DNA from: an uncultured Mycoplasmatota bacterium
GTDB lineage: Bacteria; Bacillota_I; Bacilli_A; RF39; UBA660
Assembly: GCA_947646095.1 (NCBI GenBank)
Contig: CANSFI010000005.1
Location: 6,703 to 70,702 of the forward strand
Reading direction: 5' to 3'
DNA: 64,000 nt
Shown: positions 7,873-63,080 of the stretch, piece by piece
How the letters are laid out: every line of letters starts with the position of its first letter
How positions within the stretch are numbered: position 1 is the stretch's first letter
The notes under the pieces: generated by a model
Databases searched by the model: none
What the model saw: only the letters and a program-made list of their open reading frames with translations
Told to the model about the DNA's origin: nothing
Program-made: the position numbers and the translations under genes

Positions 7873-8054
7873 TTAATTTTTTATTAGTTTTTTTTCAATG
7901 AATAAAATTACATAATACATAAAAGCTGCTACTATACATAAAATTATTGTTCCACTTATAACCAAATTCAAATTAAAGACTTGTGAACCATACATAATTA
8001 AATATCCAATACCTTCTTTTGATACTAAAAATTCTCCCATTATTACGCCAATTA
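7873..8054 (-). pseudogene. ABC transporter permease (NitT/TauT family), 3' fragment
   Basis: The part ...IGVIMGEFLVSKEGIGYLIMYGSQVFNLNLV... is the conserved C-terminal end of binding-protein-dependent permeases. It continues the 5' fragment at 41587..42193 in frame. Confidence 0.85.
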
Positions 8055-8072
8055 TAGTCATGGTGCGAAAAA
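8048..8072. repeat. left junction of the ICE: 7-bp core CCAATTA plus terminal inverted repeat
   Basis: CCAATTA at 8048-8054 is repeated at 41580-41586. GTCATGGTGCGAAAAA (8057-8072) matches the reverse complement of 41557-41572 at 14 of 16 positions. Confidence 0.75.
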
Positions 8073-8122
8073 TTGGTGTTTAAGGCATTTTTAGGACTAA
8101 ACTTATAGGAATAGGAGTTATT

Positions 8123-8761
8123 ATGGGAAAAACACTTACTTGTCCTTTCTGTAATAATAAAGATACTTTAAAAGTAGTTTATTGTTATAGGGGCTATAAA
8201 AAAAGAAATAATGATGATATTAGTAATTTAATAAAAGATGGTACAATATATAGAAATGAAAAACCTAGATTTGAAAAATATGATTTTGATGGTGAAAAGA
8301 TAACTGCATCTTTATATAATAAATATTGTCCTAATTGTGATAAATATTTTCACTCTATTGGTAAAATGGCAGTCATTGATATAGATAAAGTTACATTTAT
8401 TTATTCACTAGAAAAACAGATATTCAGATATGATTTTGATTTTTCAAATAATAATAGTGCAAAATATTCATATAAACAAAACTATATTAGTGTAGATAAA
8501 GATATTCTATTAAATGAAACAGAAAGATTTAATATACTAAAAGGTATAAAAGAATCAAAAATGAATTTTTGGAACAAAGAATATAATTATAGTGATTCAT
8601 TTAGTTATAATTGGATAATAAAATTAGAATATCATAATGGGTTAAGTGAATGCTATTATGGTTACGATCAAGTTTCTAGTAATTGGGATTTATTTATATC
8701 TGGGTTTAAAGTAATTATTTATAAATATGATAAAAATAAATTAATAGATAAAATCGTGTAA
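8123..8761 (+). CDS. hypothetical protein with putative zinc ribbon (CPFC...CPNC)
   Basis: 212-aa ORF. SD-like GGAGTT lies upstream. There are two CxxC pairs. Confidence 0.45.
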   Translation: MGKTLTCPFCNNKDTLKVVYCYRGYKKRNNDDISNLIKDGTIYRNEKPRFEKYDFDGEKITASLYNKYCPNCDKYFHSIGKMAVIDIDKVTFIYSLEKQIFRYDFDFSNNNSAKYSYKQNYISVDKDILLNETERFNILKGIKESKMNFWNKEYNYSDSFSYNWIIKLEYHNGLSECYYGYDQVSSNWDLFISGFKVIIYKYDKNKLIDKIV

Positions 8762-8816
8762 TGATTTGACAATCGTTAGTAAGGGAGTTACTATTCAAGC
8801 AACTGGAGGTCATTAC

Positions 8817-9089
8817 ATGAATACATTTGATAGAGATTATAAGGAAAAAGAGAGAAATACTATAAAATATTTCCATACTATATTATTATCAAAGTTGTTG
8901 CTTTTAAATTATGAATTTTCTAATCATGAATATAATGGTACAACTGGTGAAGATGTCTTTAAAATATTACCAAAAAAGATTAATTATAGTGAAAAAGAAA
9001 AGCAAGAAATTATTGATAATGCAATTATGCTATTAAAAATAAATGGTAAAACAGTAACAGATTTTGAAAAAATAGAATTTGAAAAATAA
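8817..9089 (+). CDS. hypothetical protein
   Basis: The ATG at 8817 is preceded by GGAGGT with a 6-nt spacer. Confidence 0.4.
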   Translation: MNTFDRDYKEKERNTIKYFHTILLSKLLLLNYEFSNHEYNGTTGEDVFKILPKKINYSEKEKQEIIDNAIMLLKINGKTVTDFEKIEFEK

Positions 9090-9183
9090 TTCTTTTTTTC
9101 ATTAACTACTATATAAATAAAAGTTAAAAAATGTTATAATATATCTAACAGAAAAATAGTAAGTTTAAAAGTGAGGATGAATT

Positions 9184-9756
9184 ATGAAAAAAAGGATTTT
9201 AATAATTTCAGGAACAATATTGATTCCATTATTTAGTTTTATAATGTATCAATTTATTAAATCTTTAGATTATAAAAATTCGTTATCTAGTTTAGAAAAA
9301 TATATATTTGTTGCTAATGAAACAACCATAAAAAATTTAGAATATGATAACAAAAATTATGTTATTTCAAGATATTACGATGATTCAAGTTCTTGGAGTC
9401 ATCTTAATATATTATTAAAAAATAATGACACCTATTATGTTTTAGAGAATATAAAAAAATGTGATACAGTTGATAATGGATCTAATTTATATGTAAAAGA
9501 TAATGTAATTTATATACATTGCATTGGTAAAGAGGGAATTATAGATAAGTATTTAATAAATGATTTTAGTGTTGAAAAAGAAACTATAAGTTTTAATTTC
9601 AAAAATACACCTAACATTAGTCAATTACATATTGGTATAGATAAAGTTGATGATGAAAACATCTACTTATCATCTCCATTTAAAGTAGATAATACAGTTA
9701 AAGATAACCCTAATGTAAAATGCTCATTTAAAGATAAAAATTGTATATATTATTAA
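9184..9756 (+). CDS. membrane-anchored or secreted hypothetical protein
   Basis: N-terminal KKRILIISGTILIPLFSFIMYQFI signal-anchor. SD GTGAGGATG lies upstream. Confidence 0.5.
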   Translation: MKKRILIISGTILIPLFSFIMYQFIKSLDYKNSLSSLEKYIFVANETTIKNLEYDNKNYVISRYYDDSSSWSHLNILLKNNDTYYVLENIKKCDTVDNGSNLYVKDNVIYIHCIGKEGIIDKYLINDFSVEKETISFNFKNTPNISQLHIGIDKVDDENIYLSSPFKVDNTVKDNPNVKCSFKDKNCIYY

Positions 9757-20290: not shown

Positions 20291-20734
20291 ATTAACAAAA
20301 ATAAAATCGAACTAATTGGTAAGATAACTAGTTTATCGTATAAAAGACAAGACATAAAGGGTAAAAAATTTATGTTTTTTGATATAGTACAAAATGATAA
20401 ATTAGATAACAATTCTTATTCTTCTAGTTTTTATAAAGTTAAATTAAATGAAGAATTATTAAATAAATATCAAGATATGATAAAAGTATCAAATAATATT
20501 TATATTGATGGTTACTTAAATTCTTATTTAAAAGATAATCAAAATATTTATTACATATTTCCTAAAGAAATTAAATTATTAGATAAAAACTATAAATTAG
20601 AAAATAATGATATACCCATGATAGATTATGATACTGATGGTGTTATGATTTGGCATGGTGTAAGGTGTGAATCAGAGCCACTATCAGAAGAAGAACAAAA
20701 AGAAATGGCAGATCTGCTTAGTGCCTACCAATAA
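20291..20734 (+). CDS. OB-fold (SSB-like) protein; probable ATT start
   Basis: The frame is open from 20264. AGGAGGTG sits 5 nt before ATT at 20291. The N-terminal extension INKNKIELIGKITSLSYKRQDIKGKKFMFFDI looks like an SSB first strand. The alternative start is ATG 20372. Confidence 0.4.
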   Translation: MNKNKIELIGKITSLSYKRQDIKGKKFMFFDIVQNDKLDNNSYSSSFYKVKLNEELLNKYQDMIKVSNNIYIDGYLNSYLKDNQNIYYIFPKEIKLLDKNYKLENNDIPMIDYDTDGVMIWHGVRCESEPLSEEEQKEMADLLSAYQ

Positions 20735-20738
20735 ACTA

Positions 20739-21515
20739 ATGCCAGATTTAAGATTTTCTAATTATACTGATTTACTTGATGGTCAGTCTATAATTTATAT
20801 TTATGGGAAAGATAAAGAACTTGCAACCCAACAATTAAGTATAGTAAATGGAATTTGTAAAAATAAAAATCTTCCAATTTCCAAAGTCTATATGGATATT
20901 GGTGGTAGCAATAGACTTGATAATAAAATTAATCTAAAAAAATTAATTAATGAGAATAAAAACAATAATATCTTGGCTTCAAGTGTTTCAAGACTTACCA
21001 GAGATACTTTCGAGTTGTTAAATTTAAAGCATCTGTGTTATAAGAAAAATCTTAATGTTTTTGATTTAACTAATGATAGATTTATTTTTGATAAAAGTTT
21101 TGAAATGTTAGAAAATTTATTTTCAAAAGGAAGTGATGAAAACTTGCAAAGAAATTTGGATATTCTTTTAGTTAAGCCCAATAAATTACCAGTTAAAAAA
21201 ACTATTAGAAATACCCTAGAAGAAAAGGAAAAACTTGTTGGTGGTGATATTCAATATACATATTTAGAAAATTGTAATGATGTTGCCATTGTCTATAATG
21301 AAAATAGCAATAAGTTAAATTTGCCTATCAATAGGGATATAGGACATAGTGTTATTTCTGGGAATTTTTTTATTGTTGGTGATGATGCTGAACTTGGTGA
21401 AGATCGTTCTTTAACAAAAAAACAAATAGACAAATATACTAATTATTTTGGAAAAATATCTATTGAAAAAATAAATAAAATGAAAGATAAAAGTTATAAT
21501 GGCTTGTCTATGTAA
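20739..21515 (+). CDS. non-catalytic resolvase-like N-terminal domain plus DUF3846-like C-terminal domain
   Basis: IIYIYGKDKELATQQ replaces the YxRxSxxxQ catalytic serine motif. The C-terminal part VGGDIQYTYLEN...LPINRD...ISGNFFIVG resembles DUF3846 of conjugative elements. Confidence 0.45.
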   Translation: MPDLRFSNYTDLLDGQSIIYIYGKDKELATQQLSIVNGICKNKNLPISKVYMDIGGSNRLDNKINLKKLINENKNNNILASSVSRLTRDTFELLNLKHLCYKKNLNVFDLTNDRFIFDKSFEMLENLFSKGSDENLQRNLDILLVKPNKLPVKKTIRNTLEEKEKLVGGDIQYTYLENCNDVAIVYNENSNKLNLPINRDIGHSVISGNFFIVGDDAELGEDRSLTKKQIDKYTNYFGKISIEKINKMKDKSYNGLSM

Positions 21516-22340: not shown

Positions 22341-22700
22341 GTGATAATTATGTTAGAATTAAAATGTGATTTGAATAGCATAAGAGAAAAATATAGTAGT
22401 AAACAAGAGAATCAAGATAATATATATAATTATTATCATGAAATGCTTGATACTATATATGCTTATGCAGATAATATCGGTGATAAAGATTTTAGAAATA
22501 CTATACCCATTCCTAGTATTGCTTTAGCAACTGAAATTTTTGGTGAAGATTATTTAGATAATCATAAGTCAGATGATTTATATTTACTTACTGGTGAACA
22601 TACTGTATCTTTATTAAATTATAATAGTATTAGTGATTTAATAGATAATTCTATTTCCTATTTTTCAAAAGAAAAAGATAAGGACTTTGATATATGTTAA
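22341..22700 (+). CDS. hypothetical protein
   Basis: ORF that abuts the gene upstream and overlaps the one downstream within the T4SS operon. Confidence 0.45.
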   Translation: MIIMLELKCDLNSIREKYSSKQENQDNIYNYYHEMLDTIYAYADNIGDKDFRNTIPIPSIALATEIFGEDYLDNHKSDDLYLLTGEHTVSLLNYNSISDLIDNSISYFSKEKDKDFDIC

Positions 22701-45320: not shown

Positions 45321-45336
45321 GATTTGGAGGTAAAAT

Positions 45337-47998: not shown

Positions 47999-48196
47999 AT
48001 GGATTCAGAGGATATTATGAGAAGTAAAGAAGTAAAATATAAGAATAAAGAAATACTTTTAGAAGTGGCTCTTTCCTTAAATAAAAAGTTGTTTGATGAA
48101 AATAAAATATCATATAAAATGTTTAAATATACAGAAGAAAATATCTTAAAAGAATTAAAAATTTGTAATGTAAGTGGTGCTAATGCTATTTCATGA
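47999..48196 (+). CDS. small protein upstream of the serine recombinase
   Basis: 65-aa ORF after AAAGGAG. It occupies the same position as the small ORFs upstream of the other two LSR genes. Confidence 0.4.
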   Translation: MDSEDIMRSKEVKYKNKEILLEVALSLNKKLFDENKISYKMFKYTEENILKELKICNVSGANAIS

Positions 48197-48233
48197 AAAT
48201 ATGTTATAATGTCGTTAGAAAGGAGAAGAAGAG

Positions 48234-49943: not shown

Positions 49944-49990
49944 ATTAGACTTATAATTTTTCACTTGGAGACTTCATTCCCTTACACTAA

Positions 49991-50142
49991 GTTCAAATAA
50001 TGTAACAAAGTCTCCTGTTCCTCCTACAAATGCTCCTTGCATAGCAGCAAATGCAATACTAGTATCAATAACTAAATCTTGCTTAGGGTCAATACCATTT
50101 TCTTTTAATGCCCATTCTAATGTCATTTCTGGCATTCCACCT
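49991..50142 (-). pseudogene. ABC substrate-binding protein, middle fragment between elements A and B
   Basis: Manual reverse translation gives GGMPEMTLEWALKENGIDPKQDLVIDTSIAFAAMQGAFVGGTGDFVTLFE. It bridges ...GGRKG (62647..) and PNALQVEK... (..43341). Confidence 0.85.
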
Positions 50143-50165
50143 CATCGGATACCAAACTTATAATG
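50139..50165. repeat. left junction of element B: core ACCT plus terminal inverted repeat
   Basis: ACCT is at 50139-50142 and again at 62643-62646. CATCGGATACCAAACTTATAATG (50143-50165) matches the reverse complement of 62621-62642 at about 18 of 22 positions. Confidence 0.75.
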
Positions 50166-50235
50166 TAAAAAATGCTTATAAAATAAGGGAAAGGTAAAAC
50201 ACATTAACAATAGTTTTTATAAAAATGGTGGAAAA

Positions 50236-51036
50236 ATGGCAAAAAGTAAGTTAGGTATGTCTAGTTTTGATATAGACATCAAGTTTAAGAATAAAGAGGA
50301 AGCACGAAGATATGCGAAAAGAGTACTAGAAAAAATAAGGTATATATGTAATAAAAAGAATTGGTCGGCTACAGCAATGGTATGTATTAGTAATACAAAA
50401 GGTAATAGCACTTATGTACATTATGAACATAATGGAAAGGTTGGTCGTCCTAAAAGGGTAAAAGAAATACACCCTCATAAAAGCAATATAGAGGTCGGTT
50501 GGCACTTACATATTATTATGGCATCAAAACCTTATCATTCATTTAGAGATGAATTAAAAGCATACTTTGATAAGAATTGGTTGGGTTGGAAGAAAAATGT
50601 TAACTTTGATATTACTAAACTATATGGGAAAGGAACATATAAAAAGAATACTAATATTAAAAAAGCGGAATATTTTATTAACCAAGAAGATGAAACATTG
50701 TTTTGTACTTACAATAGTAAAGAGGAGATAGTTATTCCAAAAGGTTATACTTTGAAAGATTTACATAATGCTTATATAAATATGATGACAGCAAGAAGAT
50801 ATGCTAGAACTTATGGAAATGAAAAAAGATTAGCATTAGAAGAAGAATATTATAAGATTGCAGACTTTTATTGGAACATAACAAAGGAACAAGATAAAAA
50901 AATGGTTGATAAGTTTATGAAACAAGCACAGTTAATTAAGATACAAGATAACTACGATATGAGGGAGAAAAATAATAAAGTACAGGAAAATATGAGTTTA
51001 CGCCGAAGAATTGTGGAAGAAAATAGCCCATTTTAA
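50236..51036 (+). CDS. HUH / Y1-transposase-like (IS200/IS605 TnpA-fold) domain protein with C-terminal extension
   Basis: GWHLHIIMASKPYHSFRDELKAYF is an H-u-H motif in the TnpA_IS200 context. KKAEYFINQ resembles the catalytic YIxxQ helix. Confidence 0.35.
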   Translation: MAKSKLGMSSFDIDIKFKNKEEARRYAKRVLEKIRYICNKKNWSATAMVCISNTKGNSTYVHYEHNGKVGRPKRVKEIHPHKSNIEVGWHLHIIMASKPYHSFRDELKAYFDKNWLGWKKNVNFDITKLYGKGTYKKNTNIKKAEYFINQEDETLFCTYNSKEEIVIPKGYTLKDLHNAYINMMTARRYARTYGNEKRLALEEEYYKIADFYWNITKEQDKKMVDKFMKQAQLIKIQDNYDMREKNNKVQENMSLRRRIVEENSPF

Positions 51037-51098
51037 AAGAAATTAAGTAAAAAGTATTAGTAATTATTACCCTCATATAATATACACATATATAATAC

Positions 51099-51181
51099 TA
51101 TATTGATATTAGAATGATATATAGAATAGGACTAGATTAAGAAGATATAAAGTAATATGAGGTGTATATATTGATATTAGA
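51099..51181. repeat. 15-bp perfect direct repeat TATATTGATATTAGA x2
   Basis: Copies at 51099-51113 and 51167-51181, in the intergenic region between convergent genes. Confidence 0.7.
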
Positions 51182-51278
51182 TTTAGGGGTAAAGATAATA
51201 TTGTTAGAAATGAATAACAGTATAGTTCAAGGTAAAATAAAAATGCCATACATTTAAATCATATATAGCATTACAAGT

Positions 51279-51608
51279 TTAATTATCCTTTAAACCATCA
51301 ATGTAGCCCTCTACTTTTGCTTTATTAGTAGTAGATAATGAATTGATTTTATTTAGTAAGATAAAATCGGTATTGGAAATATTATTAGGTTTTACATCAT
51401 CAATAGGCATATTGTATTTAGTTCTACAAAGTAAATAATCAATAGAAGTATTGTAGTAGTTAGCAAGTTTAATAAGCATATCGGAACTTGGAAATACTCT
51501 ACCTGTCTCATAAGAAGATATAGTTTCTTGGGTAATATTTAAATCCATAGCCACTTTTGTTTGTAGTAAGTTTTTAGAGTTTCGTATTTGCTTTAAATTA
51601 TTTTCCAT
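51279..51608 (-). CDS. XRE-family HTH regulator
   Basis: LLQTKVAMDLNITQETISSYETGRVFPS. Confidence 0.75.
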   Translation of the reverse strand: MENNLKQIRNSKNLLQTKVAMDLNITQETISSYETGRVFPSSDMLIKLANYYNTSIDYLLCRTKYNMPIDDVKPNNISNTDFILLNKINSLSTTNKAKVEGYIDGLKDN

Positions 51609-51730
51609 ATATATCGCCCTCCTCTATATATAATTGTAAAGATATTAAAAATTAGTGATAGCAATATTAGTTATATTTATATGTCTTAAATTATATAAAA
51701 TGTGTTATAATGATATTGGTGATTTTATAT

Positions 51731-52633
51731 ATGGAACTTGGAAAATTAGAAAAAATAGAATTAAGAGAAGTTTGGAGGCACGAAGCATTGGATTTTACAA
51801 GGTGGTTAGCTAGAAAAGAAAATATTGCTTTGCTAAGTAAAGAGGTAGGCATTGATATTGAGGTTATAGAAACAGAAATGAGTGTTGGAAGGTATAATGT
51901 TGATATTTATGCAAGAGATACAGAAAGTAATAAAAGAATAGTTATTGAAAACCAATTAGAAAATACTAACCACGACCATTTAGGGAAAATGTTAGTATAT
52001 GCTGCTGGTTTAGATGCCGATATTGCTATATGGGTAGTAAAAGATGTGAATGAAGAACATAGACAAGCAGTTGAATGGTTAAACGATAATAGTTTTGAAA
52101 AGATAAATATATTTTTAGTAAAAGTGGAATTGTGGCAAATAGATAATTCTCCTATTGCTCCTAAGTTTCAAGTAATATGTGAACCTAATAATTGGGCGAA
52201 AGTATTAAAACAGCAATCAAAAGATAATATAAGCGATTTAGAATTAAAACAAATGGAATATTGGCAAGGGTTTGTTGATTATGCAAAAAGTAAAGATAAA
52301 ACATATATTAGTCAACGACCATCAATTTATAATTGGTATGTTATTCGTATTGGCTCAAGCGATTATAAAATTAAATTAGTTCATAGTGTTAATAGCGATA
52401 TGATAAGGTGTCAATTAGAAATATTTAATGATGATATTTATAAAAAGTTGGAACAATATAAAAATGAAATAGATAGTAAGATAAATGGCTTAGAGTGGGA
52501 ATATTTAGAAGATAGAAAAGTTAATAGGATTAGTTGCAGTAATAATAGTAAAGATAATGATAGTTCCTATGTATGGTTGTTAGATATGGTTGATAGATTT
52601 AAAGAGGTATTTCTAGAATATTTGTATAAGTAA
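51731..52633 (+). CDS. PD-(D/E)XK-like nuclease-fold / DUF4268-type protein
   Basis: ELREVWRHEALDFTRWL...VDIYARD...IVIENQLENTNHDHLGKMLVYAAG...IWVV..EHRQAVEWLN matches my memory of the DUF4268 family. ATG 51731 follows GGTGA. Confidence 0.5.
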   Translation: MELGKLEKIELREVWRHEALDFTRWLARKENIALLSKEVGIDIEVIETEMSVGRYNVDIYARDTESNKRIVIENQLENTNHDHLGKMLVYAAGLDADIAIWVVKDVNEEHRQAVEWLNDNSFEKINIFLVKVELWQIDNSPIAPKFQVICEPNNWAKVLKQQSKDNISDLELKQMEYWQGFVDYAKSKDKTYISQRPSIYNWYVIRIGSSDYKIKLVHSVNSDMIRCQLEIFNDDIYKKLEQYKNEIDSKINGLEWEYLEDRKVNRISCSNNSKDNDSSYVWLLDMVDRFKEVFLEYLYK

Positions 52634-52765
52634 GTTTAACGGCGATATTAGGTAAGTTTGGTAGAAATAATATAAATATATTGAGTTAACGAAAAAATAG
52701 TAATAATGCTGAGATAATCGGGAAATAAAGAGGAATAAGTTTTGAAATAGAAAGAGGTATAAGAA

Positions 52766-53368
52766 ATGCAAGATTTATTTTATATGTTATTAGGGGTTGC
52801 AGTTGTAGTATTACCTATTTACTTAATTGTTAAAGCAGTTAAGAATAGAGGTAATAAAGATAAGGTAGTTAAAGATAACTCTATTAAACAAAAAGAGGTA
52901 AAACAAGAAGTAGTTAAAGAAAAGAAAGTAAAAGTGTTGAAATTAAAAGATATTAAACATATTGAGGGTATAAGCAGTTTGCGAGAAGAACAAGATTGTG
53001 CTTTAAATGTAGATGATGAGGTATTAACTGTTATATCGGAAATTGGTAATTTTAATATATCATTAGATAGAATTGTAAATGCAGGTTTAATGAGTAAAAA
53101 GGAAATGGATACTAAAAACAAAAATGTATTTGCAAGATCGTTGGTTGGTGGTATGGTTGGCTTAGGTGCATTAGGAGCAATATCAGGGATAGGTCAAAAA
53201 GTAAAGAATTATTACAATTACTTTTTAGTAATAATTTATAAGGATAAAAACAGCGAAGAAATGAAATCACTTGTATTTGGCTTAGGTAAATATGATGGTA
53301 TGGGTCAGTTGTTTGTAAATAAATTAACGAAAAGATTAAGTACTGAAAAAGTAAACATTGATTTATAG
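52766..53368 (+). CDS. membrane protein with N-terminal TM segment, Lys-rich linker and glycine-zipper segment
   Basis: TM segment LLGVAVVVLPIYLIV and glycine zipper LVGGMVGLGALGAISGIG. It has its own terminator. Confidence 0.5.
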   Translation: MQDLFYMLLGVAVVVLPIYLIVKAVKNRGNKDKVVKDNSIKQKEVKQEVVKEKKVKVLKLKDIKHIEGISSLREEQDCALNVDDEVLTVISEIGNFNISLDRIVNAGLMSKKEMDTKNKNVFARSLVGGMVGLGALGAISGIGQKVKNYYNYFLVIIYKDKNSEEMKSLVFGLGKYDGMGQLFVNKLTKRLSTEKVNIDL

Positions 53369-53385
53369 CAGTATATAGTAGTTCT

Positions 53386-53435
53386 AAGGTAATTTGATAT
53401 AGTTTTGTATAGATTATATTGAATTACCTTTTTTA
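53386..53435 (+). terminator. rho-independent terminator (long loop)
   Basis: Stem AAGGTAATT / AATTACCTT plus a T-run. Confidence 0.45.
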
Positions 53436-53503
53436 ATGAAATATACGAGGAATAAGTAGGTTTTTATAGAGATTTAATATATAATTAAGTTAGGTGGTAT
53501 GCT

Positions 53504-54013
53504 ATGGGGAGTTTAAATATAGTAAGTGGAAACATATTAGAGCATTTAAAAGATAAAGATTTAATAGTAAATAGTGCTAATCAATATATGATTTATGGTA
53601 GTGGTGTCTGTGGTACTATATATAAGAATGCGAATAAAGAATTGTTAAAAGATTATTGTAAACAGCATTATAGAGAGTATATGAACGTAAATGAGGTAAG
53701 AATAACACCTGGTTTTGATTTGGGGATAGATATATTACATATTTACTGCCCTAAGTATTATGAAATGAAATCTCCCCTACAAGATTTATTAGAAAGTTAT
53801 AATAATATATTCCTTTCGGCGAAAAAGAAAAGTTATAAAAGTATTGTGTCAGTTAGTTTAGGTACTGGGGTACACGGTTATAAACATAATGATATAGCAA
53901 AAGATATAGTTGTTAGATTAAATGAATTAGTAAAAGAATACGATATTGATTTTACATTGGTATTGCCAAGTGAAGAAACAAAGGAAATATATAGTAGTTT
54001 TCTAGAAGAATAA
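53504..54013 (+). CDS. macro-domain protein
   Basis: Macro motifs VNSANQYMIYGSGVCGTI, ITPGFDLGIDILHIYCP and SVSLGTGVHGY. Confidence 0.75.
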   Translation: MGSLNIVSGNILEHLKDKDLIVNSANQYMIYGSGVCGTIYKNANKELLKDYCKQHYREYMNVNEVRITPGFDLGIDILHIYCPKYYEMKSPLQDLLESYNNIFLSAKKKSYKSIVSVSLGTGVHGYKHNDIAKDIVVRLNELVKEYDIDFTLVLPSEETKEIYSSFLEE

Positions 54014-54048
54014 GGGTTTTTATAGTATAATATTTATTGGTGGTACTT

Positions 54049-55539
54049 ATGTTAGAAAGTATAGATATAGCATTAGCAAATATTTTATATGATGAAATAA
54101 ATGATTATAATTTTTCAAAGTTATATACAGATATATATAGTAACTACGATGAGAGATTAAAATACATTTTTTCTTATTTACATCAAAATCTTAATGAACT
54201 TATAAATTTTATGAATGATAAGAGTAAATCAAATAGTCATTATAATGCGAATGAAAGTCGAGAATTATTATTTATTATAGAAACTATCCAAGAATTACAA
54301 GCAATGCTTAAAAATACTAATTTGGATTTCAGTTTGAATGGGGATTATGAAAGGTTTTTAGAATATTCCGAGACATTTCTATCATCATCAGGTGGTAGTG
54401 AAATTCCAAATGATTATAAAAGATTTACAATAATTAAATATGAACCTATTTTTAGAATGAATAATGATGTAATTATAACGAACAACATAGGCATTACTAA
54501 TTTTAAAACTAAATTAATTGGTAATGGTGCTTATGCCAATGTTCTTTTATATACTGATGAATTTTATAACGAAAAATTTGCTATAAAGAGATTAAAAAAT
54601 AATGTTAGCGATAAAGAAAAAGTAAGATTTAAAAATGAATTTGAAATAATGAGTAAAATAAAACATCCTTATATATTAAAAGTTTATACTTACAACGAGA
54701 AAGATAATAGTTATATAATGGAATATTGTGATTTTACATTAAGAAAATATATTGAAGTAAATAATAATAAATCGGAATTTGATACTAAAAAGCGAAAAAA
54801 AATAGCAATACAATTTTTGATAGCACTAAATTATTTGCATTCTAAAAAAATTTTACATAGGGATATTAGTTATAATAATGTTTTGATAAAATTATATGAT
54901 AATGATATTTTGCTACTGAAATTGTCGGATTTCGGGTTGGTTAAAGACTTGGACTTAGAATTAACAAGAACCGAATCTGAGATTAGAGGAACTTTAATTG
55001 ATGATACATTGACTAGTTTTAAAGATTATAATGTAAAAAATGAAATATATAGTGTTGGTATGATTCTTTACTTTATTTTTACAGGAAGAACGCACCTAAA
55101 AGCCGATGATAGTAATATTTATAATATAGTTTCTAAATGTATAGATAGAGATTTACAAAAAAGATATAATAATATAAATGAAATTATTATAGATGTACAA
55201 AAAATTGGAAATATTGAAAGTAATATAAATGAGATTAGTACTGATTTTATAAGTGAAAAAGCAAAAAAAATATTATTTAGTTGTATTGATAAGGATGGCT
55301 TTATGTACACAGAAAATTCAAAGTATCAACAAGAATTTATTTGTGGTACATTGAAATTAAATTTTGGTGAAATATCTATAAGAGAAAAAGCCGAATGGAT
55401 TAGTGCCATAGAAGAATTAGAGAAAAAAGGTTATATAGTTGGTCATAAAGAAAATTCTAGTTTTTATGATGATGATTTTGATAATACTTATGAAGTTATG
55501 AAAAAAGGATTTGATTATTATGATAAACATAATAATTAA
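54049..55539 (+). CDS. Ser/Thr protein-kinase-domain protein with unknown N- and C-terminal domains
   Basis: G-loop GNGAYANV, catalytic Lys in FAIKRL, HRDISYNNVL and SDFGL. ATG 54049 follows GGTGG. Confidence 0.75.
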   Translation: MLESIDIALANILYDEINDYNFSKLYTDIYSNYDERLKYIFSYLHQNLNELINFMNDKSKSNSHYNANESRELLFIIETIQELQAMLKNTNLDFSLNGDYERFLEYSETFLSSSGGSEIPNDYKRFTIIKYEPIFRMNNDVIITNNIGITNFKTKLIGNGAYANVLLYTDEFYNEKFAIKRLKNNVSDKEKVRFKNEFEIMSKIKHPYILKVYTYNEKDNSYIMEYCDFTLRKYIEVNNNKSEFDTKKRKKIAIQFLIALNYLHSKKILHRDISYNNVLIKLYDNDILLLKLSDFGLVKDLDLELTRTESEIRGTLIDDTLTSFKDYNVKNEIYSVGMILYFIFTGRTHLKADDSNIYNIVSKCIDRDLQKRYNNINEIIIDVQKIGNIESNINEISTDFISEKAKKILFSCIDKDGFMYTENSKYQQEFICGTLKLNFGEISIREKAEWISAIEELEKKGYIVGHKENSSFYDDDFDNTYEVMKKGFDYYDKHNN

Positions 55540-55562
55540 TAAATAGATATGCGAGGTATAAG

Positions 55563-58088
55563 ATGGGATATATTAAAGCAAATTATGAATTAGCAACAAT
55601 GTATAAACAAATAATTGAAGAAAAAAAGAAATTTGGTAAATATCATAAAACAATATTTCATTTACATACTCCTGCTTCCCACGATTTTAGATTATTAAAT
55701 CATTTTAAATATACAAATTATTATAAAGAGTGTAGCGATGATGAAATATATAGTTATGCTAAAAGTGAATTGCCGATGTTAGACAGATTTAATTTTGATT
55801 TTGAAAATAATGATGATATAAAAATGTTTAATTCAAAGAAAGAATTTTTAGCATATTTATTAATTGCAAAGAAATTGGCTGACAATGATATTGAAGTAGT
55901 TTTAGTAACAGACCATAACAATATGAACGGTTATCAAAAATTGCTACAAGCAATTAAAATTTTAAACAATACAATAAAACAAAATACATATACAGAACTT
56001 ATTATGGGAATAGAAATTAGTTGTGCTGATAAAAATCACGTTGTTGGTATTTTTAGTGATAAGGATATTAATATAAATAAAAAAATTAATCAATGGTTAA
56101 AAGAATATATAATGAGCGAAGAAGAAGGAACATATTTAACCAGTTTGGAAGTTATTAAACAAATTGATGAATGGAAAGGAATTCCCTACATTGCTCACTT
56201 TGATAATTCGGATTTTTTTAAAGATTCTAAATTTTTAAATATTGCTTATAAGAAAAAGTTATTTAGTTTAGAAAATTTATGCGTTATTGGTCTTGCTAAT
56301 AAAGAAAATTTAGCAAAAATTTCAAATAGAATAAAAGATTATTCTGATAAAGATTTTTGCTATGTTATAGATGATGATTCACATTCATTAGAAGAAATAG
56401 GAAAAAATAGTTTTTGGTTAAAAGGAAATAATAGAAATTATAATATGGTTATAAGTGCTTTAAGAGATTATAATATTTGTATAGAGTATAATATTCCAAG
56501 AGTTCCACAAAAATATATTAAAGGATTAGTTATTAGAAACAATGGAAAAGGTTTCTTAAAAGGTAAAGATAATAAAGATTTTTGTATATCATTTTCAGAA
56601 TATTTAAATTGTTTTATCGGTGGAAGGGGCACAGGGAAAAGCACTATTATTAATATTATTGAATATACTATTCAGCAAGTGGTAAAAAATGAAAAAATGC
56701 TAGATTTAATTTGTAAGTATAGTTCTATTTGGTTACTTTTTCAAATAAATAATAGGGAATATATGATACAATTATATAATCCACAAAAAGAATATGAAGA
56801 CGACAGTATTTTAAAATGTTTTAGTCCATATAGCCAAAAATATAATTATAAATACAAATTTTATAATGAGCAAATAAAACAATTTTTATTAGAAAGATGC
56901 ATTACAGTTTATGAACTTAAAGAAAGTAAAGGAATTTTATACAGTAAACCAGTTAATAATAAAAGAAAGTATTTAGATGATGTATTTAGCACAGCATATT
57001 CTATAAATGAATTAGTTGAAACTTAAAATAGTAATGAAATAAATGACTATATTTACAATACCTTATTTAAAAATAAAATATTATCATCTGTAAAAAATAC
57101 TATACGCATTAAGTCGATTAATGGATTAAAGAAAAAATTACAAGAAGTTTCTAGCATTAAGGATTTAAGAAAAAAACAAGTAGAAGAAGTTGTAACTAAA
57201 TTTAATGATAGCCAAAAAGGAATATTACAAATTATTTATAAACAAGAAGAAAATAATTTAAATGTTTTGAATATAAAGGAATTGATTTCAAGAAAATATC
57301 CTATAAAGGATAATTATTATTATAAAAAGAAAAACATTTCTACTTTAAGCATAGTAGATTATTTAGAAGCTCTTAATGATAAACTTGGATTGGAGAAAAT
57401 GTTATTATTATTTATTAACAATAGTTATGAAGAATTAGAAAAGACTATGTCTATTAAAACTTTTTTAGAGGAAAAAAATCAAAAATTAATTGATAAGCAA
57501 ATTGAATTTATCAAAGATGATGAATTACTGAAGATTGTAGAATCTATTGTTAAAGATATTATAAATAACGATAATATTCCTACTATAGTTGATAGTTTAA
57601 GAAAATATATAAAAGAAATTGAAAGTTTTGATTTAGAATTCAATATAAATAATAAAGAGCAAAAAGACCAAAAAGTAATATATAAGAGTGTTAGGGAGCT
57701 TTCCCTAGGACAAAAGGTTGTTGCTATGCTGTCATTTGTTTTAGGATTTAGCGATTTTTCTGGTGATTATAGTCCTTTAGTTATAGACCAGCCAGAAGAT
57801 AATTTAGATAATCAATACATTTATAAAAATTTAGTACAAAAATTAAAGGAAATAAAATCAAAAAGACAAATAATTATTGCAACCCATAATGCTACTATTG
57901 TTACAAATGCTAAAGCTGAGCAAGTAATCATAATGGAATCTGATAATATTAATGGTTGGATAAAAACAACTGGATATCCAAATGAAAAAAATATAAAAAC
58001 ACATATTATTAACTATCTTGAGGGTGGAATAGAATCTTTCAAGCATAAGTATTTTATTTATAAAGAAGTAATAGATTATGAAAAATAA
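55563..58088 (+). pseudogene. PHP-domain plus ABC/SMC-like ATPase protein (Ppl-like), interrupted by one in-frame TAA
   Basis: PHP motifs FHLHTPASHD, VTDHNNM, GIEIS and IAHF. Walker A GGRGTGKST, signature-like SLGQKV, Walker [12 protein letters not shown], then ATHN. ORFs 55563..57026 and 57267..58088 share a frame, and the 240 nt between them has no further stop. Confidence 0.7.
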
Positions 58089-58116
58089 ATTTATGTTTAA
58101 AAAAGTATAGGTTTAT

Positions 58117-58152
58117 AAAGATTTAATTTGATTATGAATTAAGTCTTTTTTT
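58117..58152 (+). terminator. rho-independent terminator of the macro-kinase-PHP/ATPase operon
   Basis: 12-bp stem AAAGATTTAATT / AATTAAGTCTTT (one G-U pair) plus a T-run. Confidence 0.6.
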
Positions 58153-58280
58153 ATATTGTTAAGAGTTGTTTATTTGTTTTTTAAATATTTGGAAAGTTTT
58201 ACGACATTTTTAAAGAGAACGGCTCGTATCTTTTTTGAAAGTCATATATTATATATTTTATGGTAAGGAGGTGTCATAAA

Positions 58281-58511
58281 ATGAGAGAAGAAATATTAAG
58301 ACAAATAATTGTAGCAGTATGCGATGGATTTGTTGATACACTATTAACTGGTATTGAAGAATATGAAAAAGATTTTCCCTATACTATTGCCTGTGCTAAT
58401 TTTATAAGTGAGTTAAAAAGCAAAAATATATTAGTTAATTTTTATTCAATATTTGATAGTCATATTGTTGATATGATATTTAGAGAAACAAGTAATTATT
58501 TGGTGAGGTAG
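58281..58511 (+). CDS. hypothetical protein
   Basis: ATG lies 7 nt after AAGGAGGTG. Confidence 0.45.
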   Translation: MREEILRQIIVAVCDGFVDTLLTGIEEYEKDFPYTIACANFISELKSKNILVNFYSIFDSHIVDMIFRETSNYLVR

Positions 58512-58520
58512 GTTTAAAAT

Positions 58521-59123
58521 ATGGAAAGTAAAACTTTTGGCTATGGTAGAGTTAGTAGCAAAGAACAAAACGAGGAAAGACAATTAGTAGCGTTTAGAGA
58601 ATATGGAATTGATGAAAGAGATATTTATATTGATAAGCAAAGCGGTAAAGATTTTAATAGAGAAAATTATATTACATTAAAGCATATATTAAGAGAAAAC
58701 GATTTATTAGTTATTAAGAGTATAGATAGATTAGGAAGAAATTACTCACAGATTATTGAGGAGTGGCAAGATATTACTAAAAATATTAAAGCAGATATAG
58801 TTGTTATTGATATGCCCCTACTTGATACTAGGAAGAATAAAGATTTATTAGGTACATTTATTAGTGATTTAGTATTACAAATATTAAGTTATGTCGCCGA
58901 GCAAGAAAGAACATTTATAAAGCAAAGACAAAGCGAGGGAATTGATATAGCATTAAAAAATGGTACTAAAAGTGGAAAGCCTTTTGGCAGACCCAAAATT
59001 GAAAAACCACAAAATTTTGACATTGTGGTTAGTAAATGGAAAAATAAAGAAATTAAAAGTAAAGAGGCAATGGAATTACTAGGGCTAAAACCTAATACCT
59101 TTTATAATATGGTTAATTCTTAG
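58521..59123 (+). CDS. small serine recombinase (resolvase/invertase)
   Basis: GYGRVSSKEQNEERQ, SIDRLGRN and a C-terminal HTH. 200 aa. Confidence 0.85.
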   Translation: MESKTFGYGRVSSKEQNEERQLVAFREYGIDERDIYIDKQSGKDFNRENYITLKHILRENDLLVIKSIDRLGRNYSQIIEEWQDITKNIKADIVVIDMPLLDTRKNKDLLGTFISDLVLQILSYVAEQERTFIKQRQSEGIDIALKNGTKSGKPFGRPKIEKPQNFDIVVSKWKNKEIKSKEAMELLGLKPNTFYNMVNS

Positions 59124-60115
59124 TATGCCTTCTTTTTTTTGTCTTTAGATAAATACCATTCAATTAACTTTTTTTCATTATTTCTAAATTTACCTTTTGC
59201 TATTTTTTTGTCTTTACGGTATTCTTCTCTTTCTTCTTCTGAAGTATAATTATTATAATATTGGGAATCAATTCTATTTTCTAATATTACAATAGGTTTT
59301 TTATCGTAATTTTTCTTTTGCTCTTTTTGAACAATTTTTCTACAGTAAGGACAATTAAGACAACTTGCGTGAGTATCAACAAAAAAGTTACCACAATTAA
59401 AACAAGTAAATAATTTATAGTCATAGTTTGTAGAAAAAATAATATTAAGAAATGAATATACCAATTCAAGTTCGTTTTTACAAAAAGAAGAATAGGTAAT
59501 TATCATATCAGCATTACTCTCCTTTTGGTTTAGAAATTCTTGATTAAAATCTTTACTGTTAAATTTTATCATCTTATATTTTAATTTGATATTATCAGTT
59601 TTACTATCTTTTTTTATAGAATAACTATCATAGAATAACTTTGAAAGTTGTACTTGGCTATTACTAATACTTCTCTTTTTATCATCATCAAAGCTCGAAT
59701 AATAATTTTGTAATTTTATTATATCTTTATATCTAATATTTGATTTATTAATTTTATCAGCAAGTCTTGTTTCAATGCTTTTTTGTATAGGGTTAATTTT
59801 TATGCTAGAGGTAAATAGAAAATAATTCCATACATCGGAATTTATATAATTTTTTTTAGTTAATGTTAGACTGAATGAGAAAATAGTATCTACTATTTCT
59901 TTTGTTCTTTTTGTTATATTAGAAAAGATACCATTAGAAAAAGGAACATCTACAATAAAAATGCCTTCCTGTGTATCATAATATTCATATTTTATTTCAA
60001 ATTTAGGAATAATATTTTTTTCTTCTTCAGAATAACTGATTTGAATAAAAGGACATATTATTTTAGTTTTAATGTCATAGCATTCTTTATAAAGTAATTG
60101 CATATATACCTCCAT
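59120..60115 (-). CDS. hypothetical protein with C-terminal Cys4 zinc ribbon
   Basis: CFNCGNFF...CLNCPYC. It converges on the resolvase gene with a 4-nt overlap. Confidence 0.5.
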   Translation of the reverse strand: MEVYMQLLYKECYDIKTKIICPFIQISYSEEEKNIIPKFEIKYEYYDTQEGIFIVDVPFSNGIFSNITKRTKEIVDTIFSFSLTLTKKNYINSDVWNYFLFTSSIKINPIQKSIETRLADKINKSNIRYKDIIKLQNYYSSFDDDKKRSISNSQVQLSKLFYDSYSIKKDSKTDNIKLKYKMIKFNSKDFNQEFLNQKESNADMIITYSSFCKNELELVYSFLNIIFSTNYDYKLFTCFNCGNFFVDTHASCLNCPYCRKIVQKEQKKNYDKKPIVILENRIDSQYYNNYTSEEEREEYRKDKKIAKGKFRNNEKKLIEWYLSKDKKKKAY

Positions 60116-60274
60116 AAAATACCGAAATTAAAATCACAAAATAAGTTCGGAAAGTTAGTTTCATTTTATCATATAATCACCTAAAATGGAATTAGTCAAA
60201 GAGAAATTGTAAAAATTTGAAAGTCGACTAAAGATTTCCTTTGATGTAAAAATTACGAAAGAGAGGAAAAAAAT

Positions 60275-60781
60275 ATGTCAAAGAAATTAAAAACAAAAAT
60301 TAAAGAAAGGGTTGTGTTATATGTTTATTATGATGAATGTGAAATAGATTTTGCTTGTGAGAAAGAAAAAATGCTTAGAAAACTTTGCAAGGATAAAAAT
60401 TATGATATTGTTGGTATTTTTAGGAGTCCATATTATTCAGATTTAGAAGGGTTAAGTCCAGATATTAAAACAGTAATGGAAGATGCAAAAAATGAAAAAT
60501 TTGATAGATTCTTATGTTATTCATTAAGAGAAATATCTGATAATGCTGAATTGCAAACAGTAATAGCAAATATTATAGGATTTTGTGGAGTTCCAGTTGA
60601 AACTATAATTGAGGGGAAAATGGATGATGATTTTTTCTTCGCCATATCATTATTTGAAAATTATAATCATAAAGAGGAACTACAAACTAGTAAAAATCCT
60701 TATAAAGCTAGAATAATGTGCGATTTAAATGCTTACCAAATTGAAAAAAGCAATAATGAAATTAAAGGTTTACCATTTTAA
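60275..60781 (+). CDS. non-catalytic resolvase-like domain protein
   Basis: VVLYVYYDECEIDFACEKEK replaces the YxRxS motif, but the overall pattern matches a resolvase N-terminal domain (..DIVGIF...KFDRFLCYSLREISDN). Confidence 0.4.
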   Translation: MSKKLKTKIKERVVLYVYYDECEIDFACEKEKMLRKLCKDKNYDIVGIFRSPYYSDLEGLSPDIKTVMEDAKNEKFDRFLCYSLREISDNAELQTVIANIIGFCGVPVETIIEGKMDDDFFFAISLFENYNHKEELQTSKNPYKARIMCDLNAYQIEKSNNEIKGLPF

Positions 60782-60834
60782 GTCTATAAGTATTATAGAT
60801 TTAATAAAATCATACATTTAACTAGGTGGTATAA

Positions 60835-60939
60835 ATGAAAATAGTTAATGTTTTCGATGATAATGGGAAAACACTACAAGATATTATAGAGCAGTTTCTT
60901 ATTGATTACTGTTTGGAGATTGGTTCTTTCAAAAAATAA
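60835..60939 (+). CDS. small TnpW-like protein (34 aa)
   Basis: Below the ORF-track cutoff. AGGTGG sits 5 nt upstream. Product MKIVNVFDDNGKTLQDIIEQFLIDYCLEIGSFKK. It lies directly upstream of the LSR gene. Confidence 0.35.
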   Translation: MKIVNVFDDNGKTLQDIIEQFLIDYCLEIGSFKK

Positions 60940-60987
60940 TACTATAATATAATTGTTAATGTGTTTTACCAAGAAAGGAGTGGAAAT

Positions 60988-62550
60988 TTGAAAGGTAAGA
61001 CATATAAAACCGCTTTGTATATTAGATTATCTCGAGATGATGGCGATAATATGGAAAGTGAAAGCATTAAAAATCAAAGAGATTTGTTGCAAATGTTCTT
61101 AGAGCAAACAGAAGAAAAACTTTTGTATGTAGATGAATATGTTGATGATGGCTATACCGGTTCTAATTTTAACAGACCTGCTTGGCAAAAACTATTAACA
61201 GATATTGATAGTGGAAAGATAAATACAATTATTACAAAAGATTTATCTCGTATGGGTAGAGACTATATCTCTATGGGGGAATATATTGAAAGAATATTCC
61301 CCGAACGAGGTATAAGATATATTGCTTTAAATGATGACATAGATACATTTTATGAAACACCAGGGTTAGAATTTTTACAATTCAAGTTAATGTTTAATGA
61401 TTACTATTTAAAAGATACATCAAAAAAGATTAGAAAAATAGTAAAAGCGAAAAAAGAAAAAGGACAATTTCTAGGGTGGAAAGCAGTATATGGTTATAAA
61501 AAAGATCCTAATGATAAACATAAAATAATTGTAGATGAGGAAGTTAGACCTATTATTGAAAGAATGTTTAACCTAGTAATAGAGGGTAAAAGTCCAAGAC
61601 AAATAGCAAATATATTCTCTGATGAGCATATTCCAACACCTAGTGTTTATGCTAATCTAAATAGAGGTATGAAATCCACAGCATATGAATTATGGTGTCC
61701 TAGAACTATTGAAGAAATGCTTACCAATGAAACATATATAGGAAATCTTACACAAGGAAGAAGAAGAAAATTAAACTATAAATCTAAGAAAGAAATTAGA
61801 ACCCCTAAGGAAGAATGGATTATAACTGAAAATACCCACGAACCAATTATTGATAAAAAGGTATTTAACACAGTGCAAGACTTATTAAAAAAGAATAAGA
61901 ATAAACCAACTGGCAATAATATTCAATTACTTTCTGGCTTTATGGTATGTAAAGAATGCGGACACGCAATAGGAATAAATAAAAGTAGCGATGGCAAAAG
62001 AAAATATTGTTGTTGTACTTATTATATTTCACATAGTAAATATGGCTTATGTACTCCACATAGTTGTAATTATGATAAATTGGAAAATGCTATATTAGAA
62101 GAAATTAAAAAAATGTGTACTGAATATGTAGATAGTAGTACATTTAAGGACAAAGTAGATGAAGCGAAGAAGAAAAATGATATTAGAGTTAAACTACAAA
62201 AAGAAATCAACATATTAGATAGAAAAGTTAGTAGTAATCTATCCTATATTGATAAAGTATATGAAGACAAGTTAAAAGGCGACATTGATATAGAAATGTT
62301 TAATCGTTTAACTATCAAATATAAAGAAGAAATAGAACAATGGAAAAGCAAGAAATCAGAGTTTGAATTAGAACTTAATAATATTGATAAAGAAGATACT
62401 AATAAGGAAAAAGAAGAAATACTAAAAAAGATAAACGAATATTTATCTTTTGAAAAACCAAATAGAAATTTATTAGTTAATCTAATTGATAAGATACTTA
62501 TTAGTGAAGATAAAACAGTAGAAATACATTATAAATTTAAACTGGCATAA
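60988..62550 (+). CDS. large serine recombinase (element B)
   Basis: ALYIRLSRDDGDNMESESIKNQ, DLSRMGRD, recombinase and zinc-ribbon (CKECGH...CC) domains and a coiled-coil. TTG 60988 lies about 7 nt after the AGGAG core of AAAGGAGTGG. Confidence 0.85.
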   Translation: MKGKTYKTALYIRLSRDDGDNMESESIKNQRDLLQMFLEQTEEKLLYVDEYVDDGYTGSNFNRPAWQKLLTDIDSGKINTIITKDLSRMGRDYISMGEYIERIFPERGIRYIALNDDIDTFYETPGLEFLQFKLMFNDYYLKDTSKKIRKIVKAKKEKGQFLGWKAVYGYKKDPNDKHKIIVDEEVRPIIERMFNLVIEGKSPRQIANIFSDEHIPTPSVYANLNRGMKSTAYELWCPRTIEEMLTNETYIGNLTQGRRRKLNYKSKKEIRTPKEEWIITENTHEPIIDKKVFNTVQDLLKKNKNKPTGNNIQLLSGFMVCKECGHAIGINKSSDGKRKYCCCTYYISHSKYGLCTPHSCNYDKLENAILEEIKKMCTEYVDSSTFKDKVDEAKKKNDIRVKLQKEINILDRKVSSNLSYIDKVYEDKLKGDIDIEMFNRLTIKYKEEIEQWKSKKSEFELELNNIDKEDTNKEKEEILKKINEYLSFEKPNRNLLVNLIDKILISEDKTVEIHYKFKLA

Positions 62551-62620
62551 TATTATAAGTTTTAAATCCGAGGGGCTTTTCGGCAGTAGAACTTATGATA
62601 TTTTTTTTAATAAAATTTTT

Positions 62621-62646
62621 ATCATAAGTTTACCATCCGATGACCT
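62621..62646. repeat. right junction of element B: terminal inverted repeat plus core ACCT
   Basis: ATCATAAGTTTACCATCCGATG (62621-62642), then ACCT (62643-62646). Confidence 0.75.
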
Positions 62647-63080
62647 TTTCTACCACCAATAACATATTTTCCTTTTAAATCTTCTAGTTTAAAATTATCA
62701 TATTTTTTTCTAGATACTAGAAAGCTACCATCTCTTTTTGTAAGTCCTGAAAAATTTACTAAATAATCCTTTTCTCCTTGATTATAAACATAAATTGTTG
62801 CTTCACTTCCACAAAAACCGATTTGAACATCATCTGAAAGTACTGCAGCTGTTACCTTATCTGCTCCAGGTACTAACATAATTTCAACATCTAAACCCTC
62901 TTTTTCAAAATATCCTAATGCGTCTGCCACATATTGTGGAGCATAAAATACACTATGAGTTACCTCAGCTACTTTAACTTTCTTTAAATTACTATCTTCT
63001 TTATTAAATTTAATTAATATAAAACCTACAATTAATAAAACTAAAACAATAATAGGAATAATTATCTTTTTCAAATTCAT
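62622..63080 (-). pseudogene. ABC substrate-binding protein (NMT1/THI5-like), 5' fragment
   Basis: Signal-anchor, then ...VTHSVFYAPQYVADALGYFEKEGLDVE...GKYVIGGRKG|. The host part is 62643..63080; the last six codons (HRMVNL) and the stop come from element B. Confidence 0.85.

Follow-up and report, generated by a model that had tools for sequence, protein, structure and literature searches.

The divided transporter operon and its recombinases

We analysed a stretch of 64,000 nucleotides (nt), here called the window, from contig CANSFI010000005.1 of an uncultured Mycoplasmatota bacterium (assembly GCA_947646095.1), in which the operon of an ATP-binding cassette (ABC) importer is split by three elements, A, B and C, each carrying its own large serine recombinase (LSR). 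The G+C content of the window is about 25%, and its host genes lie on the minus strand: ligA, a nucleotidyltransferase gene, pcrA, the transporter operon and tsaD. The operon, located between pcrA and tsaD, comprises genes for a substrate-binding protein (SBP), an ATPase and a permease. Its pieces and the elements between them are as follows.

7873-8054, minus strand: permease, C-terminal part, from the core CCAATTA (8048-8054) to the stop codon
8055-41586, plus strand: element A, 33.5 kb, an integrative conjugative element (ICE)
41580-42193, minus strand: permease, N-terminal part, residues 1 to about 205, ending at the core CCAATTA (41580-41586)
42186-42932, minus strand: ABC ATPase, 248 amino acids (aa), intact
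42932-43345, minus strand: SBP, C-terminal part, from the core GTTC (43342-43345) to the stop codon
43346-49994, plus strand: element B, 6.65 kb, an LSR island
49991-50142, minus strand: SBP, middle piece of 152 bp, bounded by the core GTTC (49991-49994) and the core ACCT (50139-50142)
50143-62646, plus strand: element C, 12.5 kb, an LSR island
62643-63080, minus strand: SBP, N-terminal part, residues 1-146, ending at the core ACCT (62643-62646)

When the segments 8055-41586, 43346-49994 and 50143-62646 were excised in silico, a complete SBP-ATPase-permease operon was obtained. Joined at the cores, the pieces gave an SBP of 331 aa with a full-length Pfam NMT1 match and a permease of 262 aa, in which the BPD_transp_1 match covered positions 1-182 of 184. 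The two crossover points in the SBP gene are separated by 148 bp. We found neither frameshifts nor stops in the operon fragments, and the open reading frame (ORF) of the N-terminal SBP part continues into element C as far as 62622. The operon is predicted to encode an importer of the NitT/TauT type. NCBIfam profiles run against the SBP and the ATPase returned sub-threshold SsuA/Tau/Sao-type matches only and no substrate assignment, and an Rfam scan of the window at gathering thresholds revealed no riboswitch and no other RNA family, so that it gave no hint of the transporter substrate. A tRNA scan of the window found none, and the hotspot is therefore not tRNA-linked.

The three recombinase genes lie at the right-hand ends of the elements.

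40193-41539, plus strand: LSR-A, 448 aa, stopping 41 bp before the right core
48234-49943, plus strand: LSR-B, 569 aa, stopping 48 bp before the right core GTTC
60961-62550, plus strand: LSR-C, an ORF of 529 aa (homologues about 520 aa), stopping 93 bp before the right core

The proteins are 24-28% identical to one another in pairwise comparison, and each has an intact ORF with Resolvase and Recombinase domains plus Zn_ribbon_recom; the domain scan found no DUF4368 in any of the three. The catalytic serine motif reads YARVSTD in LSR-A and LSR-B and YIRLSRD in LSR-C, and all three are putatively active recombinases. The N-terminal domain of LSR-A resembles that of TP901-1 and A118, that of LSR-B resembles a Clostridioides conjugative-transposon recombinase, and the catalytic (N-terminal) domain of LSR-C is TnpX-like. 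The Recombinase-domain match of LSR-A is weak (19.1 bits, with a cutoff of 21.1). Each LSR gene is the final plus-strand gene of its element and is antiparallel to the operon. This layout, with the gene reading toward the right junction, had been described for the window in an earlier note on the same DNA, as had recombinases of about 448, 569 and about 520 aa; both descriptions were upheld, the last size being that of the homologues of LSR-C.

LSR-A lacks an ATG, GTG or TTG start, and gene callers shorten the protein to 389-424 aa. At window 40170-40200 the sequence ATA AAR GCN GGA stands 7-8 nt after a GGAGG, and four relatives from other species keep this arrangement, suggesting that LSR-A uses a conserved non-canonical ATA start. 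Such a start would possibly keep expression of the integrase low. We also considered that LSR-A might be a pseudogene without a start codon, which was rejected because the Shine-Dalgarno sequence and the ATA are conserved among the relatives.

On the plus strand, the core shared by attL and attR is CCAATTA for element A (7 bp; starting at 8048 and 41580), GTTC for element B (4 bp; 43342 and 49991) and ACCT for element C (4 bp; 50139 and 62643), and both arms of every att pair are intact. The attP sites were reconstructed by swapping the arms of the junctions, and all of the reconstructions were dyads about a non-palindromic centre. The attP dyad of A spans 34 nt (CACCATG...CATGGTG, centre CC), that of B is CACTAAG-TTCT-CTTAGTG, and that of C is perfect, ATCCGATGA-CC-TCATCGGAT. 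The three elements thus differ in their cores and in their terminal inverted repeats, as had been noticed before. Copies of the ICE in four host backgrounds are identical through ...CATTAAGTCC (...AAGTCC) and diverge from the next base, which places the crossover of A at CC. The crossover dinucleotides of B and C are predicted to be TC, inside GTTC, and CC, inside ACCT, respectively.

Between the LSR-C stop codon and the true right junction we observed a segment of about 70 bp (within 62553-62642) in which a P'-type and a P-type arm stand back to back, following a first, degenerate core. The segment also occurs in one C-type element of another host (L091) and is absent from a second (L093); it may represent the leftover ends of a second C-type element in tandem.

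Precise excision by the LSRs would restore the three genes exactly, and the fragments are undecayed, their conservation in the closest uninterrupted relative (locus L001; 85-89% aa identity) being similar to that of the flanking pcrA and tsaD (83%). Both properties would suit a regulatory switch in which conditional excision rebuilds the operon, as in active lysogeny or in intervening elements that are excised during development. However, the switch would call for three excisions at once, the analysis identified no recombination directionality factor, and site A is simply polymorphic among strains; we consider a switch very improbable.

Uninterrupted relatives and the fidelity of each recombinase to its site

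The reconstructed SBP was scanned against one genome per species, and 80 loci were kept of at least 288 SBP-bearing loci. All 80 derive from metagenome-assembled genomes of uncultured gut "Bacilli/Tenericutes/Mollicutes", the named members of which stand under NCBI Mycoplasmatota incertae sedis, and we take the lineage to be the GTDB order RF39. The SBP gene is contiguous in 80 of 80 species-level relatives, these representatives being SBP-intact by the manner of selection. The closest locus, L001, has 89% SBP identity and the gene order tsaD-SBP-ATPase-permease-pcrA, and it is uninterrupted at all three junctions, where it matches the reconstruction nucleotide for nucleotide. Read-through in L001 and the reconstruction together established the one cut in the permease gene and the two closely spaced cuts in the SBP gene that had been reported earlier. 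Among the 80 species, the whole operon is intact in 51, an LSR-A-type insertion is present in 7, and about 10 have an insertion near residue 137 of the ATPase. The arrangement of element B, the middle SBP fragment and element C is reproduced in independent conspecific assemblies at 98.9-99.9% identity. An assembly chimera was rejected, since the same junctions occur in these independent assemblies, and together with the read-through in L001 they indicate that the insertions are neither chance nor assembly artefacts. In some relatives (for example L002 and L003) inserts of 0.7-6 kb separate the SBP gene from the ATPase gene. We rejected them as further LSR sites, as they hold various non-recombinase genes (among them glycosyltransferase-like genes and genes for collagen-like GPTGPTG repeat proteins).

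Comparison with related genomes, which the earlier note had proposed as a way of finding empty sites, also yielded an empty site A in two conspecific contigs, L087 and L089, and in L087 element B is in place. In four further conspecific contigs site A holds a different element, with Ank, AAA and LRR genes as cargo and an LSR with 79.5% nucleotide identity over 459 bp. In other hosts (L101, L103 and L104) a B-type element abuts an SBP N-terminal fragment of 198-203 aa, meaning that site C is empty there. The ICE also occurs in other hosts, and the C-terminal end of the SBP adjoins the ATPase in L113. Elements A, B and C are independent of one another.

These observations bear on the possibility, also named in the earlier note, that the three elements and the operon fragments between them form one composite element that arrived or moves as a single unit. 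All three lie within 55 kb in a common orientation, and B and C occur together in two further conspecific assemblies, as a unit would. The composite is nevertheless refuted by the empty or otherwise occupied site A in conspecific contigs, of which every one that reaches site B has element B, by the presence of B without C, and by the occurrence of the ICE elsewhere. Furthermore, the intervening fragments belong to the host operon and are collinear with uninterrupted orthologues. We give a composite element practically no credence.

In other hosts, all examined relatives of each LSR were found at the identical nucleotide position within the gene that this LSR occupies in the window. Relatives of LSR-A (51-76% identity) lie antiparallel to the operon at permease residue ~207 (range 205-216); they occur in 7 of the 80 species, to which three ICE copies are added. 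LSR-B relatives form more than 120 clusters (86-96% identity) that come from varied hosts, and the LSR-B protein itself is unchanged on 41 contigs. Both of the LSR-B relatives that were looked up lie at SBP residue ~196, in two host backgrounds and with right junctions at the identical position; the cargo is group II introns and RhuM in one and ABC exporters in the other. For LSR-C there are more than 100 clusters at 66-97% identity. The five relatives looked up, which are 87, 78, 77, 74 and 66% identical and come from different host contexts, all lie at SBP residue ~146, against an N-terminal SBP fragment of 148-155 aa. One LSR-C relative is part of a prophage that encodes a holin and a GH25 lysin. 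A scan of IMG/VR with LSR-C gave relatives of 30-38% identity only and no close phage copy. In this small sample the LSRs appear to be site-specific enzymes with a single target, unlike the multi-targeting TndX/TnpX-like recombinases.

Two additional sites were found in the ATPase gene. At the fourth, present in about 10 species, the gene is cut directly after LSGGMRQRV (around residue 137) at the core AGAGTTG; a conserved element arm, TATGAATGTAGTATAGACAC, adjoins this site, and in L073 an inverted copy of the arm stands at the far junction. In L031 a 546-aa LSR lies antiparallel, 1.2 kb from the cut. The fifth site, found in four loci (L104-107), lies at about residue 197 of the ATPase, and a 499-aa LSR stands right beside the cut. 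The recombinase gene is convergent with the 5' fragment of the host gene at all five sites examined. As judged from these junctions, the operon has at least five distinct LSR att sites in the lineage, each with its own recombinase clade, and the earlier suggestion that the locus is an integration hotspot was thereby strengthened.

The ATPase of the window (42510-42530) and that of L001 read RQRC (AGATGTG and AGATGCG, respectively) where carriers of the fourth element family read RQRV, encoded by the att core AGAGTTG. This change may make the ATPase of the window a poor target for that family.

Conservation was scored in 30-nt windows over 27 aligned intact orthologous operons. The windows centred on the cores fell at the 97.5th percentile for C, the 95.8th for A and the 86.8th for B. 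A 32-nt stretch across attB-C recurs unchanged in an orthologue with only 54% SBP identity (JGI Ga0265293_10005704, positions 6033-6064), an extreme degree of local nucleotide conservation. High conservation at the att sites fits integrases that target conserved sequence and so gain a wider host range.

Several operons hold more than one insertion. L100 has B, C and the ATPase-137 insertion, L094 and L129 have C and ATPase-137, and L104 has B and ATPase-197. A second interruption was present in 4 of 5 SBP-interrupted genomes (the window excluded), compared with 17 of 72 SBP-intact genomes (Fisher p=0.018). The difference is suggestive of a filled site raising the chance that others are filled, and the excess fits further hits being cost-free after the first. 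The operon is broken in a quarter of species, which argues that it is dispensable.

Interruption on this scale might instead reflect adaptive loss, the transporter being harmful in the niche, as a phage receptor or a toxic import route, and insertions accumulating by inactivating it. Loss of this kind is favoured by the at least 17 of about 72 evaluable species in which the ATPase or permease is interrupted while the SBP is intact, and by the two or three interruptions in several genomes. Yet the operon is full-length and conserved in 51 of 80 species, the junctions examined all lie at a few exact att positions with recombinase-type arms, and the fragments are free of frameshift and nonsense mutations. 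A single inactivating hit would also suffice, leaving three unexplained. We regard adaptive loss as quite improbable; the repeated selection for loss of the transporter that had been suggested earlier is unneeded and weakly contradicted.

We hold it highly probable that three independent elements, each with its own LSR, integrated by conservative attP x attB recombination at three different cognate sites of one operon in a low-GC gut lineage. Each LSR would recognise about 30-40 bp of unusually conserved coding sequence and exchange strands at the central dinucleotide (CC for A, TC for B and CC for C), and integration would leave the element between hybrid sites that share the short core only. 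The elements that use sites in the operon are of several kinds: conjugative elements, small islands and at least one prophage. Co-occupancy would arise from the independence of the sites and the dispensability of the operon, with insertions after the first adding no cost. Small genomes may have few loci that are both conserved and dispensable, which may explain why this operon is used over other conserved ones.

Several points weigh against this account. An exact 40-mer metagenome scan for a conspecific empty site B gave no match, and an exact 32-mer scan for an empty site C gave a single match, in the distant species with 54% SBP identity, and none that was conspecific. In L094 and L129 the gene for the LSR-C relative does not come last in its element, so the layout shared in the window is not universal. 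The current activity of B and C is predicted from intact genes and sites, and the co-occupancy sample is small and non-independent. Finally, the window was chosen post hoc, and an enrichment of insertions in this operon over other loci is a supposition.

A further proposal is that the operon is a selected landing pad and not just a target that is tolerated, with at least five unrelated clades specialised on different conserved parts of one 2.5-kb operon and filling it together above expectation. We offer it tentatively and think it rather doubtful. If it were true, the elements would profit from inactivation of the transporter, for instance through the loss of a receptor or of a route of uptake; alternatively, a first hit that "opens the door" would concentrate mobile DNA at one sacrificial locus in small genomes.

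Gene content and circulation of the elements

The other located features of the elements and of the adjoining host DNA are listed below.

7294-7695, minus strand: remnant of an IS66-family transposase (Pfam DDE_Tnp_IS66, E=1.7e-6, weak)
22694-24070, element A: conjugation transmembrane protein, with pLS20_p028 and mycoplasma-ICE family matches below curated cutoffs
24508-26865, element A: VirB4-like ATPase (TraG P-loop/AAA_10)
29949-31256, element A: MobL relaxase
31253-32236, element A: internal tyrosine recombinase
33571-35493, element A: tet ribosomal-protection gene
37906-39933, element A: VirD4 coupling protein (T4SS-DNA_transf/TraG-D_C)
55563-57026 and 57267-58088, element C: split Ppl-like gene
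58521-59123, element C: small resolvase, 200 aa
60275-60781, element C: degenerate resolvase

Element A combines, between its att sites, all the features of an ICE: relaxase and coupling protein, VirB4-type ATPase, mating-pore parts and an integrase. Its further genes encode a LysR protein, a NUDIX protein, a SpaA/TED (thioester) adhesin with a sortase, SSB, an M23 peptidase, PadR, an N6 methyltransferase and a DUF7659 protein. A small serine recombinase, a Resolvase-DUF3846 fusion, also lies inside the ICE at 20667-21515. The tet gene belongs to the TetM/W/O/S family (1231 bits, with an NCBIfam cutoff of 1100). As it shares only about 70% identity with tet(O/32/O), the named gene closest to it, it may represent an unnamed tet class. 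Its G+C content is about as low as that of the host.

Contigs from other samples contain copies of the ICE with 99.8-100% identity over the shared right-hand ~6 kb (35508-41594), and four of these contigs have different host flanks. Near-identical copies in different hosts indicate recent transfer, and element A is evidently a currently circulating ICE. Five copies that are otherwise 99.8-100% identical (L108, L109, L111, L112 and L114) differ solely in a block at window 32449-35507, just downstream of the tyrosine recombinase gene. The block holds PadR and tet in the window and, elsewhere, a hydrolase, an ABC2/histidine-kinase set, a reverse transcriptase or a Big_14 protein, and it looks like a swappable cargo slot. 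Tandem accretion of A-type elements was seen in L108 and L111.

Element B carries an alpha/beta hydrolase, RhuM (PDC-S05) and a DUF3419 methyltransferase-like protein, in addition to a conserved right-hand module composed of a 178-aa ORF, a NikA-like 131-aa ORF, a 65-aa ORF and the LSR. The RhuM gene (44335-45320) consists of 264-aa and 64-aa ORFs and is a single 328-aa gene in conspecific contigs (for example L081, 7612-8598), which marks the split as a recent frameshift. The cargo of element C comprises PDC-S11/DUF4268, a Macro-domain protein, an Stk-like Ser/Thr kinase and a split Ppl-like PHP-ATPase. The two Ppl-like ORFs match profile positions 38-310 and 772-889 of the 894-residue PADLOC Ppl model, suggesting that this defence gene is broken or without its middle. 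The 200-aa resolvase and its neighbours are conserved in the C-type elements of three other hosts (L091-L093). We found no relaxase, coupling protein or VirB4 homologue in element C, nor in element B, where a weak, sub-threshold NikA-like match was the only one. Elements B and C are thus probably better termed LSR-borne genomic islands, possibly mobilisable, that carry candidate defence genes.

The split Ppl-like gene, the RhuM gene that is frameshifted relative to the 328-aa conspecific version, and the degenerate resolvase and IS66 remnant raise the question of whether the locus is a graveyard, in which old, immobile insertions persist because the operon is already dead. The presence of element B in every conspecific contig that reaches its site would also fit an old insertion. 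In contrast, none of the three LSR ORFs is broken, each att pair keeps both of its arms intact, the right-hand ~6 kb of the ICE is 99.8-100% identical across samples and hosts, and LSR-B is both unchanged on 41 contigs and spread, at 86-96% identity, over more than 120 clusters from varied hosts. A graveyard, which the earlier note had set beside the hotspot, describes some of the cargo (Ppl, RhuM, IS66) and does not extend to the recombinases, the att sites or the ICE; as an account of the locus we judge it unlikely, and independent integration at cognate sites remains the reading we prefer.

The IS66 remnant lies downstream of the operon, outside all three elements, and also occurs in the conspecific contig L089. 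The earlier note had placed it there together with a decayed GNAT gene. The former was recovered as the weak Pfam match listed above, and the latter has a motif-level resemblance with in-frame stops and no Pfam match. Where the window has the IS66 remnant and the possible decayed GNAT gene (6764-7872), L001 has a Fic-domain gene (5590-6540; motif HPFREGNGRAQREF), which shows that the permease-pcrA interval is variable too. GC skew is negative over the host flanks (1-7700 and 63177-64000) and positive across 8055-62646. The host genes are all on the minus strand, and the genes of the three elements are nearly all on the plus strand. About 52 kb of mobile DNA is thus oriented opposite to the host genes and probably head-on to replication.

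Significance and comparison with known systems

In our literature searches, neither this operon nor this lineage turned up as a described LSR target. The locus is a well-resolved case of a known phenomenon and involves no new mechanism. What is particular to it is that several non-overlapping sites in a 2.5-kb operon are filled together, in an uncultured lineage with reduced genomes. It provides three, arguably five, new sets of recombinase, attP and attB, resolved to the base and with natural empty sites, which are raw material for mining integrases for genome engineering. Much of the mobile DNA of this small-genome gut lineage, including the tet-bearing ICE and the islands with candidate defence genes, would enter via one conserved operon. 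The operon could hence be used in practice as a marker by which mobile elements of the group are found and typed in metagenomes, and the locus is a natural setting in which to test whether further insertions are drawn to a disrupted gene.

The integration systems of A118 (comK), TP901-1 and SPbeta (spsM) share with those described here the Resolvase, Recombinase and zinc-ribbon architecture and a conserved coding target. They are also alike in the very short core of attL and attR, the imperfect dyad of attP and the position of the integrase gene near the end of the element. The targets here are new, namely an NMT1-type SBP gene, used at two positions, and a permease gene, and the three LSRs have low identity to characterised enzymes and are known from sequence, with LSR-A apparently starting at ATA. 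As with the excising intervening elements skin and SPbeta in spsM, exact restoration of the interrupted genes would be possible in principle. Many cases of distantly related LSRs that target the same gene cluster were reported in a survey, in which an ATP-dependent protease family was the target of 12.4% of the predicted site-specific integrases (Durrant et al., preprint 10.1101/2021.11.05.467528). Unlike those cases, the clades described here use non-overlapping sites in one 2.5-kb operon, which allows simultaneous occupancy.

Element A resembles Firmicute- and Mollicute-type ICEs with a serine integrase in its VirB4-like protein, VirD4, MobL, hydrolase, adhesin with sortase, membrane protein and LSR, and differs from them in its divergent tet gene and in the variable cargo slot beside the tyrosine recombinase. 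Tandem pile-ups at a single site are known for staphylococcal cassette chromosome (SCC) elements at rlmH (orfX) and for ICEs. The SCC islands and the tandem accretion of ICEs are like the present locus in that elements bearing their own recombinases pile up at one place in the genome, whereas the elements in the window are not in tandem and occupy three separate sites through three unrelated recombinases.

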